Shown: piece by piece, positions 10,145 to 62,968 of the stretch
How positions within the stretch are numbered: position 1 is the stretch's first letter
How the letters are laid out: each line of letters opens with the position of its first letter
Source of the DNA: Octopus vulgaris
Taxonomy: Eukaryota
Length of the DNA stretch: 64,000 nt
Direction: 5' to 3'
Assembly: GCA_951406725.2 (NCBI GenBank)
Contig: OX597821.1
Coordinates: forward strand, 87,730,001 to 87,794,000
Translations under genes and position numbers: made by a program
Notes under the pieces: model-generated
Databases searched by the model: none
Seen by the model: only the letters and a program-made list of their open reading frames with translations
What the model was told of the DNA's origin: nothing

Positions 10145-10200
<56 letters not shown>

Positions 10201-10201
<1 letters not shown>

Positions 10202-11047
10202 CCAGCCGAAATTGCAAAGATAATCTGGAACTCGACTGAGGAAAGAAAACTTCGAATGACCCGTCCGTGTTTTTTCTTATCCGTTTTTTGTATTCCTTTT
10301 TATATACATATTGCGGCGTACGTCCCTTATATGTAAGTATATATATATATATATATGTCAGTATAAATTTTGTACGACTATATTTCTTTAAATTTTGTAC
10401 GACTCTTCCTTTCTTTCTTTCAGCCCCGTCACACTTACTTCGTTCTTTCCACTCTTCTGTTCCCCCTCTCTCACATTTCCTGGCTTTCTCTTCATTCTCA
10501 CCTTTCTTCCTCTTTCACTTAACTCTGTCCCTTTTCTTTTTTGCTGTCCCTCCCTAATTCTTCTGTCCCTCTGCCTCTACCTCTCTCCTCTCTCTCCACG
10601 TGACCAGTGTTTGACCAAGCCTGACCTCTCTTTCTTGGTTCGATTACCATCCGTGCAACATCTATATTCCTTCCCCATGCCTGCCATCTCTTATGTCCTT
10701 GCCGTAAGGCTTCACTACCTCACACGCCAATTCAATTCAATTCGTCCTTAGTCGAAAGACACCTGTTGTTATGTCCTGTTATTTGCATTTGTATGTGTGT
10801 ATCCTTTCTCCGTTATTTTTTCCGTCCTTGTTTCCGTATACATTCTAGTGCTCTTAGCTTAGTTTTTCCTTGGGGCTGCCCAGATTGGAGCAATCTCGAA
10901 TGTAACCAACCGAAATTGGAAAGATGATCTGGAACTCGACTGAGGAAAGAAAACTTCGAATGACCCGTCTGTGTTTTTTCTTGTCCCTTTTTTGTATCAT
11001 CTAGCAGTCTAGATGTTTTGCATGCTTGTCCCATTTTTTCTATTCCT
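10201..11047 (+). mobile_element. Family X: (TA)n-embedded non-autonomous element, a partial unit plus a full unit in tandem
   Basis: 10201-10295 repeats 10905-11000. Homologous to 27845-28103 (+) and 57690-58220 (-). Flanked by (TA)n. Confidence 0.8.
10874..10946 (+). ncRNA. Permuted hammerhead-like motif, family X
   Basis: GGCTG-C-CCAGATT-G-GA-GCAAT-C-TCGA-ATGTAAC-CAACC-GAAA-TTGG-AAA-GA-T-GATCTGG-AAC-TCGA-CTGAGGA. Confidence 0.6.
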
Positions 11048-15545: not shown

Positions 15546-15655
15546 TTCTTTCAGCATGGTAAATATATACATAATTTAAACAACACACATAAAATATCAC
15601 ACGTACATTATTACACTTAAGCTACGACACACAACTTCACGTATAACATATAATC

Positions 15656-16506
15656 TTATCTACTTTAAGTACAAGGCCCGAAATTTTGGGGGAGCTGGAG
15701 AGTGCAGTCGATTAGATCGACCCCAGTACGCAACTGGTACTTAATTTATCGAACCCGAAAGAATGAAAGACAAAGTCAATGTCGGCGGAATTTGAACTCA
15801 GAACGTGAAGACCAACGAAATACCGCTAAGAATTTCGTCCGGTGTGCTAACGTTTCTTATTTCTTTACTGCCCACAAGGGGCTACACACAGAGAGGACAA
15901 ACAAAGACAGACAAACGGATTAAGTCGATTATATCGACCCCAGTGCGTAACTGATACTTATTTAATCGACCCTGAAAGGATGAAAGTTTAAGTCTACCTC
16001 GGCGGAAATTGAACTCAGAACATACCGGCAGACGAAATACCACTAAGCATTTCTGCCAGCCCACCGCCTTGCTATTATTCTTTTCTACTCTAGGCACAAG
16101 GCCTGAAATTTTTGGGGAGTTGGGGCAGTCGATTAGATTGACCCCAGTACGCAACTGGTAATTAATTTATCGACGCCGAAAGAATGAAAGACAAAGTCGA
16201 TCTCGGCGGAATTTGAACTCAGAACGTAAAGACAAACGAAATACCTATTTCTTTACTACCCACAAAGGGCTAAACATAGAGAGGACAAACAAGGACAGAC
16301 AAACGGATTAAGTCGATTATATCGACCCCAGTGCGTAACTGGTACTTATCTAATCGACCCCGAAAGGATGAAAGGCAAAGTCGACCTCAGCGGAATTTGA
16401 ACTCAGGACGTAACGGCAGACAAAATTCCACTAAGCATTTCGCCAGGCGTGTTAACGATTCAGCTAGCTCGCTGCCTTTTCTACTCTAGGCACAAGGCCC
16501 GAAATT
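15656..16506 (-). mobile_element. Cluster of at least four nested or tandem SINE family A bodies
   Basis: Repeated ATCGACCCCAGT..GCAACTGGTAC..GAATTTGAACTCAGAAC units, alternating both tail types. Confidence 0.85.
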
Positions 16507-16533
16507 TTATATATATATAATATATATATATAA

Positions 16534-17920: not shown

Positions 17921-18205
17921 GTGTGTCTTTATCCCTTAAGTTGTATAATCCTGTCTGAGGAAGTACCAAAAAACCAGAGAAACTTTGGTGGCGCTGGTAG
18001 CTGTGTGGTAATAAGCTTGCATCCCAATAGCGCTGGTGGCGCTGGTAGGTACCAAGGCAGCTTAAATAAACTGTTAAACATTGACACTGAATATATTTTT
18101 TATGCCTACCCAATAGAAAAGCTTTCATGTGTGTGTGCGTGTGTGCGTGTGTGTGTGCACGTGCGTGCATGCATGCGTTTGTATGAGTGTGTGCATACGT
18201 AAGTA

Positions 18206-18622
18206 TACTCTTTACTCTCTCTTTACTCTTTTACTTGCTTCAGTCATTTGACTGCGGCCATGCTGGAGCACCACATTTAATCGAGCATCTCGACCCCGGG
18301 ACTTATTCTTTGTAAGCCCAGTACTTATTCTATCGGGTTCTTTTGCCGAACCGCTAAGTAACGGGGACATAAACACACCAGCATCGGTTGTCAAGCAATA
18401 TTAGGGGGACAAACACAGACACACAAACACACACACACACACATACATACATATATACGACAGGCTTCTTTCAGTTTCCATCTACCAAATCCACTCACAA
18501 GGCTTTGGTCGGCCCGAGGCTATAGTAGAAGACACTTGCCCAAGGTACCATGCAGTGAGACTGAACCCGGAACCATGTGGTTGGTAAGCAAGCTACTTAC
18601 CTCACAGCCACTCCTGCGCCTA
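18206..18622 (-). mobile_element. SINE family B (CORE-like), full length
   Basis: Reverse complement of 19867-20280, with an (AAGAGTA)n-type tail. Confidence 0.92.
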
Positions 18623-19576: not shown

Positions 19577-19866
19577 TTTGTGTATATTATTAGTTCACAA
19601 GATGATCGTGTTATTAAATATTTAAGTGGTAATCTCTAACAGTTTGGGCTTTATAGCAAACAAGAAAGCACCAAACACGCGCGTTGCAAATACTGCTTGT
19701 AAGCTGGAAACTTCTCAAAGTTCAACATGTACGTCTTCATGTATATTTCTATCGAAATTCCAGTAACAATGCATCCGCCTTTGCTAGAAATCATCTCAAT
19801 GCTTAAGGAATTTGAGTTCAAACTTACATGTGTAAGAGCCACAAACACAAACAAATACACACATAC

Positions 19867-20028
19867 AGGCGCAGGAGTGGCTGTGTGGTAAGTAGCTTGC
19901 TAACCAACCACATGGTTCCGGGTTCAGTCCCACTGCGTGGCATCTTGGGCAAGTGTCTTCTGCTATAGCCCCGGGCCGACCAAAGCCTTGTGAGTGGATT
20001 TGTTAGACGGAAACTGAAAGAAGCCTGT

Positions 20029-20065
<37 letters not shown>

Positions 20066-20280
20066 GTTTGTGTGTGTGTGTTTGTACCCCTAGCATTGCT
20101 TGACAACCGATGCTGGTGTGTTTACGTCCCCGTCACTTAGCAGTTCGGCAAAAGAGACCGATAGAATAAGTATTGGGCTTACAAAGAATAAGTCCCGGGG
20201 TCGATTTGCTCGACTAAAGGCGGTGGTCCAGCATGGCCGCAGTCAAATGACTGAAACATGTAAAAGAGTAAAAAGAGTAT
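19867..20280 (+). mobile_element. SINE family B (CORE-like), full length
   Basis: A-box TGGCTGTGTGG, B-box GGTTCAGTCCC, CORE-like CTTGGGCAAGTGTCTT, internal TA/TG microsatellite, AAGAGTA tail. Confidence 0.92.
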
Positions 20281-23504: not shown

Positions 23505-23914
23505 CATGATTACCTTCCGTTTCCTGAGCATTCGTTTTCTGTACCCACTGAAAAGCACACCGTTCACATCCACTGGGGTGCTCACTCCATAACCATCATG
23601 TTTACTCCAGTTATGTCTTGTAGCATGGCTAGCAGTTGCTGGATTACGACCGGGCCCACCCTGCGGCATCGTGGAGCACCTGCCGGGTGTGGGACCTTCA
23701 CCATTGGTTCCGGTCCCGTTCACACCGTTATCGTCATCTATTTCTCTTGACATTTTCACTCACAAATGAGGTACGTTTTTAGGTCACTACCAACTGGTAT
23801 TTTTAATCAAGACGTCCTACCATTGCACCCCTTGTTTTAAACTGAGGATGTTCCTTCTCCTAGGCTGCTTGCCACCCAAGGCTAACGAGAACAACCTACT
23901 CGGGGCACTGGTTA
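23505..23914 (-). pseudogene. 5' leader and N-terminal ORF fragment of an R4/NeSL-like retrotransposon
   Basis: ORF 23490-23759 contains RHNWSK...GYRKRML. The upstream leader TAGCCTTGGGTGGCAAGCAGCCTAGGAGAAGG is typical of non-LTR 5' UTRs (recalled). Confidence 0.6.
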
Positions 23915-24145
23915 GGCGGCGAGCTGGCAGAAACGTTAGAATGCCGGGCGAAATGCTTAGCGGTATTTCGTCTGCGTTACGTTGGGAGTTCAAATTCCGC
24001 CGAGGTCGACTTTGCCTTTCATCCTTTCGGGGTCGATAAATAAAAGTACCAGTTACGCACTGGGGACGATGTAATCGACTTAATACCTATGTCTGTCCTT
24101 GTTTGTCCCCTCTGTGTTTAGCCCCTTGTGGGTAATAAAGAAATA
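23915..24145 (+). mobile_element. SINE family A
   Basis: Full consensus. Short TSD GGTTA at 23910-23914 and 24146-24150. Confidence 0.9.
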
Positions 24146-24700
24146 GGTTATTTGAAGGCGCCAAATACTCGCCTTTTCCCGCTCTTCTCCTGCTGGTTTG
24201 GCGAAGGAGTCGGGCTTGACTGACAGAGGACAGGTCTTGCGCAAGCCACTGGCGCATTTTCTAAGTGATGGGTTCTCGGCATTGGCAGAATGGGGGGAAA
24301 AAACTAGCTCGTAGAAGAGAGAGAGAGAGGGAGAGAGAAATAGATAAAAGGAAAAGAAAAGGAAGATCAACTTGGGCAGGGAGGAAGCCATTTAACACAA
24401 GTTCAGTATAATTACATTCATATTGACAGGGAGAGTAGGGGGTCTGCTTAGGAGTGGTTATAAACATGGAAGTGAAGTCGGTAGATATTGGATATCAGGG
24501 AAGATGGTAGAGGAGTGAGTAGGGGAGCGCATCACCGCTGAGAGAAGGTACCTACTGCAGCGTTACCCACGGCCCACCTGTAAATTTAAGATTTAACTAA
24601 AGACGGAAGGAGAAGCGTTAATCTGAATCTAACGAAAAACTAGCTATGTGAATTGGTCTGCGAAAGTATGATTTCGGTTGAAGAATTTTACGATGTCTAC

Positions 24701-25100
24701 AAGGAGTGGCTGTGTGGTAAATAGCTTGTTTACCAACCACATGGTTCCGGGTTCAGTTCCACTGTGTGGCACCTTGGGCAAGTATCTTCTACTATAGCCT
24801 CGGGTCGACCAAAGCCTTGTGAGTAGATTTGGTAGACAGAAACTGAAAGAAGCCCGCCGTATATATATGTATATGTATATGTGTGTGTATATGTTTGTGT
24901 GTCTGTGTTTATCCTCCCAACATCGCTTGACAGCCGATGCTGGTGTGTTTACGTCCCTGTCACTTAGCGGTTTGGCAAAAGAGACCGATAGAATAGGTAC
25001 TGGGCTTACAAAGAATAAGTCATGGGGTCGATTTGCTCGATTAAAGGCGCTGCCCCAGCATAGCCACAGTCAAATGACTGAAACAAGTAAAAGAGTAAAA
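24701..25100 (+). mobile_element. SINE family B
   Basis: Colinear with 19867-20280. Confidence 0.9.
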
Positions 25101-27808: not shown

Positions 27809-27958
27809 AATACATAACTATGTGTATATGTATATATATTATTATTGTGTTTTCGTATTATATTTGTAGTAACATCATCCATTTTTCCGTCCTTGTTTCG
27901 TATACTTTCGAAGCTTTTTTCCAAGGAATCTAATGCTCTTAGCGTAGTTTTTCCTTGG

Positions 27959-28040
27959 GGCCGGCCAGATTGGAGCAATCTCAAGATTAATCAGCCGAAA
28001 TTGCGAGGATGATCCGGTTCTTGACTGAAGATTAAAGACT
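27959..28040 (+). ncRNA. Permuted hammerhead-like motif, family X (element about 27845-28103)
   Basis: GGCCG-G-CCAGATT-G-GA-GCAAT-C-TCAAGA-TTAAT-CAGCC-GAAA-TTGC-GAG-GA-T-GATCCGG-T-TCTTGA-CTGAAGA. Confidence 0.65.
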
Positions 28041-28097
28041 TCGAATGACCCGTCCGTGTTTTTCGTATCGTCTTCTGGATGTTTTGCGTTCTTGTCC

Positions 28098-28151
<54 letters not shown>

Positions 28152-28879: not shown

Positions 28880-29754
28880 CTATTTAAAAGCCAGATAAGT
28901 GTAACGCCGCCAATGGGGGCATCGAAAATCCGACTGTAAAAGCCCGTTTACCATCCGGCCTCTGGCAAACAAAATATGGAAGAGTTCGGAGACACAAAGG
29001 TTGCACTGCCTTCTGCCCCTATCAAATGGGAGGGCCACCGACAAAATTGACCATTCCAGCCTGTAGCTTAAGTTCGTATCCTTCAGTCGCCATATTAGCT
29101 TACTGAGTCCCGTGGTCTGGCGCTTGTTCATGTCCCGAAAAGTTGCGTAATGGTTGGAGACACGCAAAGACAATCTTGAGGATGAGGCCCCTACATAAGT
29201 GAAGACATCTGAGTCCGTGTAAACCTTGCATTGGTAGACGGCGTTTTTGATCTTTGAGTTCGCCGACGTGAATCTTATTCTGCTAGGATTAGTTTCTGAA
29301 ATTAGAACTGCGTTCCTGTCACTATATTCGTTCCGAGACCTGCAGCCGCTTACAACTCTATTTTCTACTACATCACTATTAACTATAGGAATAACCCCTG
29401 ATTCTCCACTATCTATCAGAGTACTGTCATTGCTACTGCCCGTGGTGCTGCTATTGCGGGAAATGATGCTGGGGATGCTATTGGGGCTCTCTACCTACTC
29501 CCATTGTTACCGTCAACCACAACACCCCTATTTATAACTATACCCCTAGTGGGTACTCCCTGGCTGGAGCTGAGATTATGTGTCACTGTACTGGCTCTCA
29601 TATCATTATTACTACTATAATTATTCCTACTGAGCATTAAACCAGGAGCGGAAGAGGCTGTGCCTCCGGAAAAAGGTGATAGGGTCTTAGTAAGTAGCCT
29701 ATTATTATGGGAGGCGATTATCTGGGCGAGGTTTTTAGTGTTGGAGAAAGCTAT

Positions 29755-37368: not shown

Positions 37369-37762
37369 CGCAGGAGTGGCTGTGTGGTAAGTAGCTTGCT
37401 AACCAACCACATGGTTCCGGGTTCAATCCCACTGCGTGGCATCTTGGGCAAATGTCTTCTGCTATAACCTCGGGCCGACCAAAGCCTTGTGAGTGGATTT
37501 GGTAGACGGAAACTGAAAGAAGCCTGTCGTATGTATGTATATATGTATATATGTGCGTGTGTTTGTACCCCTAGCATTGCTTGACAACCGATGCTGGTGT
37601 GTTTACGTCCCCGTCACTTAGCGGTTCGGCAAAAGAGACCGATAGAATAAGTACTGGGCTTACAAAGAATAAGTCCCGGGGTCGATTTGCTCGACTAAAG
37701 GCGGTGCTCCAGCTTGGCCGCAGTCAAATGACTGAAACAAGTAAAAGAAAAAGAAAAAAAGT
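37369..37762 (+). mobile_element. SINE family B, full length
   Basis: Near-identical to 19867-20280. Confidence 0.92.
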
Positions 37763-42428: not shown

Positions 42429-42780
42429 GCACACGCGGGCACACATACACACACACACACACACGCGCGCGGGCACACATACACACACACACACACATTT
42501 TTATACATAAAATCGCATGAAACAGCGCCGAATAAAGTATATTCTTGTAAAGTAATATTTAACATTCGATTGTATTCGGACTGAAGAAAATCTTCTGCTA
42601 CGGAAATAGTTCCTGGAGAATTGTTTCTACTTTGACTTGGCCTTACGCATATCACCTCCATTCTCGAACTGACTGTATGATACTCCGCGACTAAAAAGAA
42701 TCTCTGGAATTTTAGTTTGTATGGAAACGTTTACTTCCAGCGAAACTGTTCACTTCTAAGCAATCTGTTAGCTAGTATGA

Positions 42781-43199
42781 AGGCGGTGAGCTGGCAGAAA
42801 CGTTAGCAAGCCGGGCGAAATGCCTAGCCGTATTTCGTCTGCCGCTACGTTCTGAGTTCAAATTCCGCCGAGGTCGACTTTGCCCTTCATCCTTTCGGGG
42901 TCGATTAAATAAGTACCAGTTACGCACTGGGGTCGGTATAATCGACTTAATCCGTTTATCTGTCCTTGTTTGTCCTCTCTGTGTGTAGCCCCTTGTGGTT
43001 AGTAAAGAAATAGGTATTTCGTCTGCCGCTACATTCTGAGTTCAAATTCCGCCGAGGCCGACTTTGCTCTTCATCCTTTCGGGGTCGATTAAATAAGTAC
43101 CAGTTACGCACTGGGGTCGGTATAATCGACTTAATCCGTTTATCTGTCCTTGTTTGTCCTCTCTGTGTGTAGCCCCTAGTGGGCAGTAAAGTAATAAGT
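42781..43199 (+). mobile_element. SINE family A with a tandemly duplicated body and tail
   Basis: One head followed by two near-identical units of about 184 bp, each starting GTATTTCGTCTGCCGCTAC. Confidence 0.9.
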
Positions 43200-44796
43200 A
43201 TGTTATCTAGTATTTGCAATAGTGCTGACTGAGGAAACTGCTCCGATTTCTAAATCCACTTAGAAGTTCCTTACAACTGCTTGCCAACCGGTGTTGGTTA
43301 GCAGTTTAGCAGAGTAAATCCTGTGGTCGAGTTGTCCTAGCAAACCATTTCAGGCTGTGGTCCAGTATGGCCGCAACCCAAAGACTGAAACAAGTAAAAT
43401 ATAACTAGTTAGAGTTTATTTGTTTCAAGTAATTTTACTTCCGCTTTGAATATAATAATTCAAAGATTTCTAGTTAAGACTATTGTTGTTAATTACACTG
43501 AACATGGAACAACAAGCATGAAAATAAAAATATTAAGAGTATGGGTTTATTGCAGTCTAAACAATGGGTCTGTAAGGCGTCATTTTCCAGTTGCATAGTT
43601 ATTCTACTTAAAAACGTTGTTAGACATCTGGCCAATGTAGAAATTGTTCGGGAGGCAGTATGTACATTTTTCCCTGTAACACCTTGTTGATAGCAGCTAG
43701 AGAGATAATCGTATAAGTTACAGAAGCTATTATGCCTGTATGCCGAATACGCCCTACCACTTCAAGTATTCACTCCACAAATAGTTACACAGGTTGGAAG
43801 CGAGAAAAGCAGACTAGCTAGAAATTAATAAAATAATTCAGTTAGTTTTGGATTGATCAATTTCTGGATTAGTTTAGTAACTTTTCTTTCATCAACAAGA
43901 CACACTGGGCGAAATAAATGAAAATATCTATACATACCTTCAGAAAAGCATACGCAAAAATGAGAGCACATATAAATATTCACAAATATATACGTATCGA
44001 ATTTCGCAGTTCACCTCAACACGTGTGTATTTGGTGAGTATAGTACAGCGGTAAATAAACTGACCTGAAGTGAATGGATTATATCTAATACATAATTAGA
44101 AGATAGAAAGATTAATTTTATCATATTAATGGCTAGCATATAAAAAACCTTAGGCATAATAGTTTTTGTGCGCTTAAGTATTATTGTACCCTATACAATT
44201 ATATATCATAATAATTGTATTTTACCTAAAAGGTTTTTATATGATGGCAACTGATAAAATTCATTAATTTTAATGATTCTAACCTTTACATATATATGTA
44301 AAACACATTTACGAACATATCTCAACTTTTGTCGGTAATGGTTCCAAAACATGCATCTTAAATCGAAATACGACGTACCACGAAAAATCACCCGGAAACA
44401 TTAATTAGCTCACAGCTGTCTTAAATGATCTGTAGATATTATTTCCTTTATTTTGTTTGATTTTCTATTTAAGTATAGTCAAAAATTTTTTTTTTTTTTT
44501 GCAATTTTATGCTATGAAATATGTTTGCTGAAAGCGACGTAAACTCGGGTAACTCTACTGAAATTTTGGGATATTTTTTTGTCATTAAGCTCTTTTGAAA
44601 ATAACGCTAATTCAAATAAAGCGTAACTGGAAATAACGCTATATACATATATATATATATATATATCTTAGGTGTGTATATATAATTGTATATGTATACG
44701 AATAATTATGTATTTCCACATACGCACACGCATACACACCTACATATACATACATATCTATCTATCTATATATATATATATACATATATACATATG

Positions 44797-47430: not shown

Positions 47431-48240
47431 GAGCGTGGCCGTTCGCCAGCCTCGTCTGGCACCTGTGTCGGTGGCACATAAAAAACACCATCCGAGCGTG
47501 GCCGTTCGCCAGCCTCGTCTGGCATCTGTGTCGGTGGCACATAAAAAACACCATCCGAGCGTGGCCGTTCGCCAGCCTCGTCTGGCACTTGTGTCGGTGG
47601 CACATAAAAAACACCATCCGAGCGTGGCCGTTCGCCAGCCTCGTCTGGCACCTGTGTCGGTGGCACATAAAAAACACCATCCGAGCGTGGCCGTTCGCCA
47701 GCCTCGTTTGGCACCTGTGTCGGTGGCACATAGAAAACACCATCCGAGCGTGGCCGTTCGCCAGCCTCGTCTGGCACCTGTGTCGGTGGCACATAAAAAA
47801 CACCCTCCGAGCGTGGCCGTTCGCCAGCCTCGTCTGGCACCTGTGTCGGTGGCACATAAAAAACACCATCCGAGCGTGGCCGTTCGCCAGCCTCGTTTGG
47901 CACCTGTGTCGGTGGCACATAAAAAGCACCATCCGATCGTGGCCGTTTGCCAGACTCGTCTGGCACCTGTGTCGGTGGCACATAAAAACACCATCCGAGC
48001 GTGGCCGTTCGCCAGCCTCGTCTGCACCTGTGTCGGTGGCACATAAAAAGCACCATCCGATCGTGGCCGTTTGCCAGACTCGTCTGGCACCTGTGTCGGT
48101 GGCACATAAAAAGCACCATCCGAGCGTGGCCGTTCGCCAGCCTCGTCTGGCACCTGTGTCGGTGGCACATAAAAAACACCATCCGAGCGTGGCCGTTCGC
48201 CAGCCTCGTCTGGCACCTGTGTCGGTGGCACATAAAAAGC
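47431..48240 (+). repeat. 63-bp minisatellite, 13 copies
   Basis: Unit GAGCGTGGCCGTTCGCCAGCCTCGTCTGGCACCTGTGTCGGTGGCACATAAAAAACACCATCC. Two units are 62 bp. Confidence 0.97.
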
Positions 48241-48410
48241 ACCCACTACACTCACGGAGTGGTTGGCGTTAGGAAGGGCATCCAGCTGTAGAAACACTGC
48301 CAGATCTGACTGGCCTGGTGCAGGCTTCGGGCTTCCCAGACCCCAGTTGAACCGTCCAACCCATGCTAGCATGGAAAGCGGACGTTAAACGATGAGGATG
48401 ATGATGATGA
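48225..48410 (+). mobile_element. 3' part of a SINE/RTE-tail-like retroposon (family E) contiguous with the 63-bp array
   Basis: GGTTGGCGTTAGGAAGGGCATCCAGCTGTAGAAA...CCATGCTAGCATGG...GGACGTTAAAC followed by a (GAT)n tail. Confidence 0.75.
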
Positions 48411-55597: not shown

Positions 55598-55820
55598 GGC
55601 GAGCTGGCAGAAACGTTAGCAGGCCGGGCGAAAAGCGTGGCTGTATTTCGTCTGCCGTTACGTTCTGAGTTCAAATTCCACCGAGGTCGACTTTGCCTTT
55701 CATCTTTTCGGGGTCGATAAATTAAGTACCAGTTACGCACTGGGGTCGATATAATCGACTTAATACTTTGTCCTTGTTTGTCCCCTCTATGTTTAGCCTC
55801 TTGTGGGTAGTAAAGAAATA
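55598..55820 (+). mobile_element. SINE family A inserted into a hAT-like MITE end (55532-55597)
   Basis: Full family A consensus. Confidence 0.88.
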
Positions 55821-55961
55821 TAAAATTTGTGGGCAATAAATTATTGTTGTATATCGGGATGGTCATTTGTTTTTTGCCAAATAAACACACGCACTATATC
55901 TTTGTTCTTCACTCGTTTATTACGGTTCTTTTTTTTTAAATTAATTTTAACCCGTGTCCAT

Positions 55962-57612: not shown

Positions 57613-57679
<67 letters not shown>

Positions 57680-57689
57680 AAAAATATAT

Positions 57690-57991
57690 AAAATGGGACA
57701 AGAACGCAAAATATTCAAATAGACGATACGAAAAACACGGACAGGACATTCGAAGCCTTCAATCTTCAGTCAAGAACCGGATCATCCTCGCAATTTCGGC
57801 TGATTAATCTTGAGATCGCTCCGATCCGGCCAGCCCCAAGCAAAAACTAAGCTACGAGCATTAGATTTCTTGGAAAAAGGATCGAATGTATACGAAACAA
57901 GGACAGAAAAACGGACGATTTTACACGAAAATAAATACAAAAAACAAAAAGTAATACGAATATAAATACAAAAAAATGAAAAAGAATAATA

Positions 57992-58061
<70 letters not shown>

Positions 58062-58220
58062 CAGGACAAAGACAACAGGTGTCTTGCGACTTTAGACAAT
58101 TCAAATTAGCTGGTGTGTGGGAAAAATAATGCCTTACGGCAGACGAAGGGATCGTTGTTGTTCTGGCGCTGGTCAGAAGCCGAAAGGCTGTAGTTGATCG
58201 GCGGTCACGTGAGAAGAGAA
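57690..58220 (-). mobile_element. Family X element with internal (AAT)n, abutting (TA)n
   Basis: Colinear with 10590-11047: CACGTGACC, two GNRA hairpins, then the hammerhead-like module. Confidence 0.8.
57754..57835 (-). ncRNA. Permuted hammerhead-like motif with kink-turn, family X, best-preserved copy
   Basis: Minus strand: GGCTG-G-CCGGATC-G-GA-GCGAT-C-TCAAGA-TTAAT-CAGCC-GAAA-TTGC-GAG-GA-T-GATCCGG-T-TCTTGA-CTGAAGA-TTGAA-GGCT. All four helices pair fully. Confidence 0.72.
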
Positions 58221-58548: not shown

Positions 58549-58585
58549 GATATTTATATATACTTCATTTATAGCTACATATATA

Positions 58586-58736
58586 GGCATAGGAGTGACT
58601 GCCTGGTAAGTAGCTTACCATATAGTTCCGGGTTCAGTCTTCTACTATAGCCTCGGGAGTCTTCTACTATACCCTCGGGCCGACCAAACTCTTGTTAGTG
58701 GATTTGGTAGACGGAAACTGAAAGAAGCCCGTAGTA

Positions 58737-58783
<47 letters not shown>

Positions 58784-58998
58784 TTGTGTATCTGTGTTTG
58801 TCCCCCCAACATCGCTTGACAACCGATGCTGGTGTGTTTACGTCTCCGTAACTTAGCGGTTCGGCAAAAGAGACCGATAGAATAAGTACTAAGCTTACAA
58901 AAATAAATCCTGGGGTCGATTTGCTCGACTAAAGGCGGTGCCCCAGCATGGCCACAGTCAAATAACTGAAACAAGTAAAAGAGTAAAGACTAAAGAGT
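58586..58998 (+). mobile_element. SINE family B with a small internal duplication/deletion
   Basis: GTCTTCTACTATA.CCTCGGG is duplicated; the rest is colinear with family B. Confidence 0.88.
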
Positions 58999-59125
58999 AT
59001 ATGCACGGACCATATAACATACATAAGCATGCGCACAATACGATTTTATTTGAGTAATTGATGTTTCTTCATTCACACCACTTTCTTCCTCTGTCTCGGT
59101 CTGTCTGTTTGTGTCCCCATCTGTC

Positions 59126-62458: not shown

Positions 62459-62490
<32 letters not shown>

Positions 62491-62908
62491 CTCTTTTACT
62501 CTTTTACTCTTTTACTTGTTTCAGTCATTTGACTGCGGCCATGCTGGAGCACCACCTTTAATCGAGCAACTCGACCCCGGGACTTATTCTTTGTAAGCCC
62601 AGTACTTATTCTATCGGTCTCATTTTGCCGAACCGCTAAGTTACGGGGACGTAAACACACCAGCATCGGTTGTCAAGCAATGCTAGGGGAACAAGCACAC
62701 ACACACAAACATACATGCACACACACACATATATATATACATATATACGACGGGCTTCTTTCAGTTTCCGTCTACCAAATCCACTCACAAGGCTTTGGTC
62801 GACCCGAGGTTATAGCAGAAGACATTTGCCCAAGGTGCCACGCAGTGGGACTGAACCCGGAACCATGTGGTTGGTTAGCAAGCTACTTACCACACAGCCA
62901 CTCCTGCG

Positions 62909-62911
<3 letters not shown>
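62491..62911 (-). mobile_element. SINE family B, full length, inside (TA)n
   Basis: Near-identical to 18206-18622. Confidence 0.92.

Positions 62912-62968
<57 letters not shown>

Follow-up and report, generated by a model that had tools for sequence, protein, structure and literature searches.

A kink-turn motif in stem III of a predicted, rewired hammerhead ribozyme in a repeat element of Octopus vulgaris

Can a kink-turn (k-turn) in the catalytic stem of a hammerhead-like RNA close a ribozyme whose strands follow one another in an unusual order? The question is raised by a short segment of the Octopus vulgaris genome, on the minus strand at 57829-57777 of a 64,000-nucleotide stretch of contig OX597821.1 (positions 87,730,001 to 87,794,000; hereafter the window, in whose numbering all coordinates are given). 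The initial annotation placed here a consensus k-turn between stem III and a further helix, P0, of a permuted hammerhead. A standard k-turn introduces a kink of about 50 degrees with A-minor contacts, and binds a protein of the L7Ae family. Our preferred reading, with a probability of roughly 0.72, is that an architectural k-turn folding in Mg2+ alone bends the stem III arm back and closes a rewired hammerhead, which is carried by a retroelement likely derived from Penelope and is likely cut after C57814.

The claimed motif is present at these coordinates and matches the standard consensus: a canonical helix, a 3-nt bulge, the pairs G1b.A1n and A2b.G2n, and a non-canonical helix that continues the arm and covaries. 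The focal arm consists of a 4-bp helix with the A15.1-U16.1 pair, the GAG bulge, G.A, A.G and U.G pairs, and the 7-bp P0. Its parts are as follows.

57823-57829, minus strand: P0 5' strand CCGGAUC, in the helix that serves as the k-turn's non-canonical (NC) side and connects stems I and II at their outer ends (two-sided change in 6 of 7 pairs)
57820-57822, minus strand: non-bulged k-turn strand G-G-A (3n G, 2n G, 1n A), from the motif match and subfamily conservation
57816-57819, minus strand: stem III 3' strand GCGA, the C helix of the k-turn (covariation in 4 of 4 variable pairs)
57790-57793, minus strand: stem III 5' strand UUGC (covariation)
57787-57789, minus strand: 3-nt k-turn bulge GAG (L1-L3), constant in length and variable in sequence
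57784-57786, minus strand: bulged k-turn strand G-A-U (1b G, 2b A, 3b U), from the alignment and the parsing of copies
57777-57783, minus strand: P0 3' strand GAUCCGG (covariation)
57776, minus strand: 1-nt linker U to stem I, a potential partner of G57830; other subfamilies have linkers of 1-3 nt

U57776 is thus the 1-nt linker that had been described between P0 and stem I. RNAfold recovers the focal arm, including its 2x5 internal loop. A loose descriptor of k-turn hairpins matches the window once and shuffled sequence 0.55 times on average (20 shuffles), so that the single focal motif is near chance and not above it, and the focal region folds no better than its shuffles (z=0.59, in pseudoknot-free folding). 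A lone motif at chance level needs comparative support, and the host element provides copies for it. Four were located by blastn of a tandem monomer against the window.

57662-58220, minus strand: host element of the focal motif, a partial copy of a non-coding monomer of about 832 bp, with an (AAT)n tract inside and its end at (TA)n
27841-28130, plus strand: second copy, subfamily C, first nucleotide after the cut at 27981, A.C mismatch in P0
10844-11064, plus strand: third copy, subfamily B, bulge AAA, first nucleotide after the cut at 10896
10199-10275, plus strand: fourth copy, subfamily B, 5'-truncated about 6 nt past the predicted cut and joined to (TA)n

Among these copies, which represent only three related subfamilies, the change of the bulge to AAA with its length kept at 3 nt holds for the 10.2 and 10.9 kb copies as first noted, and GA/GA/U.G is constant wherever the positions are retained. 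The 10.9 kb copy has a G.G mismatch adjoining the bulge. The majority sequence of subfamily C, represented in the window at 27920-28070 on the plus strand, also has the A.C mismatch in P0, its 5' strand being B-like and its 3' strand A-like, and this subfamily is possibly an intermediate or a recombinant.

We searched the 2.8-Gb genome (227 contigs) with a pattern of core and stem-edge bases in which the k-turn positions were left free, and obtained 7,217 matches, against none in the reversed control; 20 arbitrary 10-kb stretches contained no copy of the element. Copies are single or in tandem, with units of 832-843 bp, and are non-coding. The remaining parts of the predicted ribozyme are these.

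57831-57835, minus strand: stem II 5' strand (G10.1 onward), upstream of P0 and unlinked to A9, covarying across families with the strand that precedes GAAA
57814-57815, minus strand: U16.1 and C17, with the predicted cut between 57814 and 57813, from the hammerhead consensus and from insertion 5' ends that cluster just 3' of it
57808-57813, minus strand: stem I 5' strand (covariation)
57803-57807, minus strand: UUAA(U) linker connecting stems I and II (NUAA in 14 of 14 subfamily majorities, UUAA in the published type-CSG alignment)
57798-57802, minus strand: stem II 3' strand, last nucleotide C11.1 (covariation)
57794-57797, minus strand: core GAAA (G12-A15.1), from the sequence, with no variation in alignment A1
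57770-57775, minus strand: stem I 3' strand (covariation)
57763-57769, minus strand: core CUGAAGA (C3-A9), with no stem II strand after it; N7 differs among subfamilies

The strands follow in the order II5'-P0-III-cut-I-linker-II-GAAA-III-bulge-P0-I-CUGAnGA, which in the nomenclature of Eckert et al. is the block order S-G-C (PMC10085705). The hammerhead core is represented by CUGAnGA, GAAA and an NUH triplet with the U16.1-A15.1 pair, together with covarying stems I, II and III; the G10.1-C11.1 pair is G-C in 17 of 19 aligned copies, and the core nucleotides are constant across subfamilies although N7 changes. These 19 copies, of equal length, were picked by hand to represent sequences either close to a majority or distant, and families whose helices differ in length were excluded. 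In this alignment 87.3% of the cells are paired, compared with 70.2% after shuffling and 18-45% in slid controls, and 18 of the 24 pairs change on both sides, with all four helices covarying. The covariation score is 0.549 versus 0.228, and none of 500 shuffles scored as high, a count that is not a probability, since the kinship of the copies and the hand-made subfamily groups make the shuffle controls overstate independence. A sixth stem II pair fails in 11 of the 19 copies, and the position is better read as linker.

The placement of the stem II 5' strand was examined in the 272 parsed copies whose upstream 30 nt had not been replaced by a TA-rich flank. All five pairs form with the upstream strand in 193 copies, with sequence after A9 in two, and with a control window in two. 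The pairs differ by family: GGCUG/CAGCC, GGGCA/UGCCC, GGACA/UGUCC, GGCCU/AGGCC, GGCCG/CGGCC, GAGCA/UGCUC and GCACC/GGUGC. With its 5' strand placed ahead of P0, stem II also ties P0 down, and the core has its opening at A9/G10.1. The non-circular block order with an I-II helix, by which type-SGC and type-CSG are recognised, is found here, and an intact block C, with the stem II 5' strand right after CUGAnGA, is found in none of the 272 copies (five of five pairs 0-2 nt from A9); because the stem II strand does not follow CUGAnGA, we assign the RNA to neither type. No helix between the flanks appears to close the A9/G10.1 gap: the search gave p=0.33, or 0.054 for 12 lineages, not above cross-family controls, and none of 22 rows exceeded its shuffles. 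Rfam models of hammerheads I, II and III had no match at gathering score in the window; the helices cross and do not form a nested three-way junction. Three other arrangements were considered and rejected. Stem II formed with sequence after CUGAnGA reaches four of five pairs in 157 of the 272 copies and five in only 2, and ignores the changes of subfamilies B and D; a type I hammerhead placed downstream of CUGAAGA, or one on the plus strand, would by inspection have no stem I or no core.

If cut RNA serves as template, insertion 5' ends are expected at or just past the cut. The largest sample comes from a subfamily with 1,258 exact matches, TAC, for which the first 100 matches listed, found by a motif that starts at +12 and so limits inference downstream of that position, yielded 80 loci, 68 of them with distinct upstream contexts. 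Among these listed matches, 28 of the 68 5' ends lie at +1 to +11 (six at +1) and one at -1 to -12, a difference across the predicted cut with p=1e-7; four lie at -13 to -60, nine at -61 to about -190, and 26 copies run through. Outside TAC, 59 copies were available, either parsed loci or copies met by chance in flanks, and 14 begin at +1 to +12 against two at 0 to -12 (p=0.004), four at +13 to +40, four at -13 to -60, and 35 further up; the 10.2-kb copy of the window is among those that begin just past the cut. The pile-up is likely a footprint of cleavage, although a transcription start at this base might produce a similar one. The TAC loci are L246-L248 and L253-L332, and about 40% of the sampled copies begin just past the predicted cut.

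These junctions also bear on the idea that the RNA is structured and non-catalytic, the open A9/G10.1 disabling the core and the pile-up marking a transcription start or (TA) microhomology. Many junctions do fall in the AU-rich linker, where TA microhomology influences their position, and Eckert et al. knew of no hammerhead with more than 1-2 nt inserted beside CUGAnGA (PMC10085705). Against this, the step falls at the scissile bond, with six TAC copies at +1 and none at -1 to -7 among the matches listed, even though TA and TAAT occur upstream too; the core nucleotides stay constant while N7 changes; and Penelope hammerheads have a conserved insertion of one nucleotide between 9 and 10.1 (PMC4209133), of a kind that a viroid tolerates as well (PMC3705267). 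We regard a non-catalytic RNA as highly improbable.

Copies reach their 3' end about 140 nt past the predicted cut, where a microsatellite follows, in most cases (TA)n (8 of 8 among the young copies measured), and they are often 5'-truncated or inverted. Non-LTR retrozymes and Penelope-like pLTRs are similar in consisting of tandem monomers that are non-coding and place their hammerhead close to the 3' end, and in having 5'-truncated and inverted copies with (TA)n flanks (PMC4209133; bioRxiv 10.64898/2026.07.22.740005; bioRxiv 10.1101/2021.04.23.441226). Their hammerheads are of type I, often minimal and dimeric, whereas that of the octopus element is wired differently, as a double pseudoknot with a stable stem III. 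Penelope-like reading frames occur near some copies, and two of eight such frames gave weak GIY-YIG and reverse transcriptase (RT) matches below the Pfam cut-offs. When six Penelope-like frames were used as queries against 272 loci and the window, none lay upstream of a copy on the same strand without an intervening (TA)n; with no linked autonomous element found, a mobilising partner is only inferred.

Several smaller observations concern these surroundings. On the minus strand of the window, 28883-29314 is a fragment 51% identical to the Penelope-like frame of L187, with (TA)23 between it and the 27.9-kb copy. Inverted truncated copies abut the main copy at L007, L036, L079, L148, L185, L203 and L206, and several of the junctions are close to the ribozyme; Penelope-like insertions have been described with such an arrangement. 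Type I-like hammerhead motifs are present in the tails of other Penelope-like elements (L156:2374 and L148:785, both plus strand), one with a palindromic stem III. Public contig sets under three other organism labels carry the same subfamily variants. Viral (7), metagenome (2) and prokaryote (1) matches to a fixed-length pattern form the helices in none of the 10 cases, and are due to chance.

The constancy of the k-turn was followed in 287 parsed copies, which hand-made rules divided into 14 groups, with seven copies in none; copies with TA-rich upstream flanks were dropped. The 3-nt bulge and both GA steps are kept in 13 of the 14 subfamily majorities while the flanking helices covary, and stem III has four or five variable pairs in these 13. 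Bulge length and the GA dinucleotides thus do not vary freely among the majorities, the exception being TAC, which has lost the G at 2n. Individual copies are less uniform: of 217 k-turn-type copies, 180 have both GAs and 37 have lost one, and 23 distinct bulge triplets occur, 18 of them with a purine at L2, position L3 not being conserved. In the 180 intact copies 3b.3n is U.G in 108, C.C in 30, U.U in 15, G.A in eight, C.A in six, Watson-Crick in six and another combination in seven. The invariance of GA/GA and U.G proposed for all copies that retain the positions therefore does not extend from the window to the genome, TAC having U at 2n and 3b.3n being mixed.

Distant families were sought with a pattern free of the GA positions, which gave 883+269 rows against 13+25 control rows (plus-strand rows overlap). 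Twenty such loci were fetched; 12 are k-turn-like and eight have other loops. In 11 of the 12 a GA follows the 3-nt bulge, and six have both GAs. Families 5-9 (loci L353-L364) are old, diverged k-turn-type lineages with wholly different stems. A pattern in which both GAs were fixed had 341 matches and none in the control, and since the GAs were preset this indicates only that distant k-turn families are multi-copy, not that the GAs are conserved.

The TAC subfamily is young and forms many arrays with 843-bp units. In nearly every full copy examined 2n is U, one G is missing and P0 has gained a U (absent from one full copy), and none of 28 TAC copies fits the standard k-turn descriptor. That TAC is amplified and has the strongest cut footprint despite its non-standard k-turn means that a standard k-turn is not required; the footprint supports the ribozyme and at the same time weakens a strict dependence on the standard motif. 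Kt-23 of Thermus thermophilus, a parallel for the 2n=U variant, folds with U at 2n but depends on G at 3n (PMC2790904). As TAC has no G at 3n, its bend may be weaker than, or different from, that of a standard k-turn.

Other joints are found in further families. Family 2 (L010:2105-2215, plus strand, and L333-L352), a second high-copy family with at least 2,299 first-look candidates, has the same split wiring, unrelated stems and an AUA triplet, and its joint is open to two readings, an inverted k-turn or a loop-E-like motif. In families 3 and 4 (L365-L372) the wiring is the same, with, at the joint of stem III and P0, GAAG opposite UAUUA or AGUA, which is not a k-turn and which we take to resemble a loop-E motif. 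The topology is common to families 2-4 despite these other internal loops.

Such cases are the main grounds for regarding the joint as a flexible internal loop, where any hinge would close the cage and GA/GA would be kept by descent or mild stabilisation. The success of TAC after loss of G2n and the loops of families 2-4 agree with this, as does the published type-SGC, in which 0-44 nt are allowed on one strand at this joint (PMC10085705). The 3-nt bulge and GA/GA nevertheless persist across lineages whose stems have been almost wholly replaced, and U at 2n is naturally tolerated in Kt-23, albeit with the G at 3n that TAC lacks. We consider a merely flexible hinge unlikely. It is rather probable, with less confidence than for the focal k-turn, that the families form an old and diverse superfamily of 'caged' hammerheads, with a core split at A9/G10.1 and dependent on k-turns, which loop-E-like bends replace in some lineages.

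The geometry points to a role for the bend. A rough triangle with a rise of 2.8 A, an estimate and not a 3D model, puts the axis ends 74-77 A apart when the arm is straight; at 50 and 35 degrees the distance falls to 33-35 A and 25-27 A, respectively. With flank links of only 0-1 nt a straight arm is excluded, and by rough estimate the residual of about 15 A at 50 degrees could be absorbed by frayed end pairs and a splay of stem I. The earlier proposal that the kink folds P0 back is accordingly a likely role for the motif, given that a straight arm cannot close this triangle and that the bulge and GAs are kept while the four helices covary. The other part of that proposal, cleavage sensitive to a host protein, gains little at best. 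A G at 3n or a C at 3b, together with C:G at -1b:-1n, favours folding of k-turns in Mg2+, and a Watson-Crick 3b.3n blocks it (PMC8191799). The focal copy has U.G at 3b.3n and C:G at -1b:-1n, and Watson-Crick pairs occupy 3b.3n in only 6 of the 180 intact copies; the focal k-turn is therefore predicted by the published rules to fold in Mg2+ alone, which makes protein gating unlikely. Of the 13 k-turn majorities, 10 have 3n=G or 3b=C, two have U.U, one has G.A and none is Watson-Crick.

The U.U majorities are those of subfamilies G and H1, and U.U at 3b.3n is the box C/D pattern. They could suggest that the k-turn is a protein-gated switch, in which cleavage requires, or is blocked by, a protein of the L7Ae family (15.5K/Snu13), and most k-turns do fold upon binding of such proteins (PMC8191799). 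The protein-dependent U4 k-turns, however, belong in 97% of cases to non-folding types, and the 3b.3n pattern seen here resembles the protein-free SAM-I k-turn and not U4 (PMC5061560); L3, moreover, varies. A gated switch is for these reasons very unlikely. Binding of 15.5K/Snu13 is possible, with no sign of selection for it in the sequences, and tuning by the host protein would be a further and improbable step.

Returning to a k-turn that folds in Mg2+ and acts as scaffold, the hairpin of P0, kink and stem III would form first, and its loop would then pair with the 5' flank as stem II and with the 3' flank as stem I. The 0-1-nt links at both flanks would demand the sharp bend, and G10.1 would stack under A9.G12 without a covalent link to A9. 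Self-cleavage after C57814 would follow, and an autonomous Penelope-like element would then reverse-transcribe the cut RNA, starting at its (TA)n-like end some 140 nt downstream.

Among known systems the closest is type-CSG, two soil-metagenome sequences that cleave in vitro at 0.004 and 0.026 per min (Eckert 2023, PMC10085705). Both designs have non-circular wiring, a 6-bp stem I, a 5-bp stem II, a UUAA linker, a stem II 5' strand leading directly into the I-II helix, and a short link from this helix to stem III (2 nt in CSG). In CSG the opening lies between stem III and the I-II helix, and A9 is linked to G10.1; in the octopus RNA that opening is closed by the bulged k-turn strand and the chain is open at A9/G10.1 instead, so that it is, to judge from strand order, a circular permutation of the CSG design, present as an animal genomic repeat in thousands of copies. 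Type-SGC (HRIMA-1; 583 sequences, from metatranscriptomes) shares the S-G-C block order, its helix 'I' corresponding to P0, and differs in having CUGAnGA adjoining the stem II 5' strand (PMC10085705). The text and supplement of that paper do not mention kinks or k-turns. Its authors took the A9/G10.1 link as unbreakable, found neither SGC nor CSG ribozymes in the genome of any known organism, and left unexplained the direct junction of helix I with stem III at their far ends. Standard k-turns such as HmKt-7 and that of the SAM-I riboswitch have in common with the octopus motif the C helix, the 3-nt bulge, G.A/A.G pairs and a purine-rich L2, as well as a kinked hairpin whose loop makes long-range contacts (PMC5061560); here, in contrast, the C helix is the catalytic stem of a predicted ribozyme, and the loop pairs with both flanks. 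In the part of the open literature that was surveyed, no natural hammerhead is described as carrying a k-turn or as broken between A9 and G10.1, although the supplements of two bioRxiv papers may list the repeat; the combination of a kink-turn with hammerhead stem III appeared there only as an engineered switch. For the giant squid, the available part of one survey reports only type I hammerhead matches (PMC6962438).

If the superfamily of caged hammerheads is real, it would provide the first case of a natural self-cleaving ribozyme that needs a k-turn, and the first of a non-circular hammerhead that has multiplied in the genome of an animal. Our reading of the focal RNA would offer a testable answer to the question of Eckert et al., the far end of stem III being joined directly to the I-II helix, and would challenge the assumption that stem II must follow CUGAnGA, in which case more permutations would be possible than the six that have been listed. 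Caged hammerheads would escape the type I descriptors used in surveys of Penelope-like elements, which suggests that lineages reported without a hammerhead may hold overlooked rewired ones. Furthermore, a k-turn in a catalytic stem would be a scaffold for co-crystallisation with L7Ae and for protein-responsive switches.

The window contains other repeats as well. A 63-bp tandem repeat occupies 47431-48243 (12.9 copies, 95% matches), and two other short interspersed families, of about 240 and 420 bp, are abundant. Interspersed repeats of a first list lie at 851-1090, 1964-2208, 15651-16508, 23914-24153, 42773-43201 and 55598-55828, and those of a second at 18204-18622, 19855-20279, 24702-25100, 37369-37761, 58550-59002 and 62486-62945. 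One of these repeat families has a short motif in common with the upstream part of the ribozyme element.
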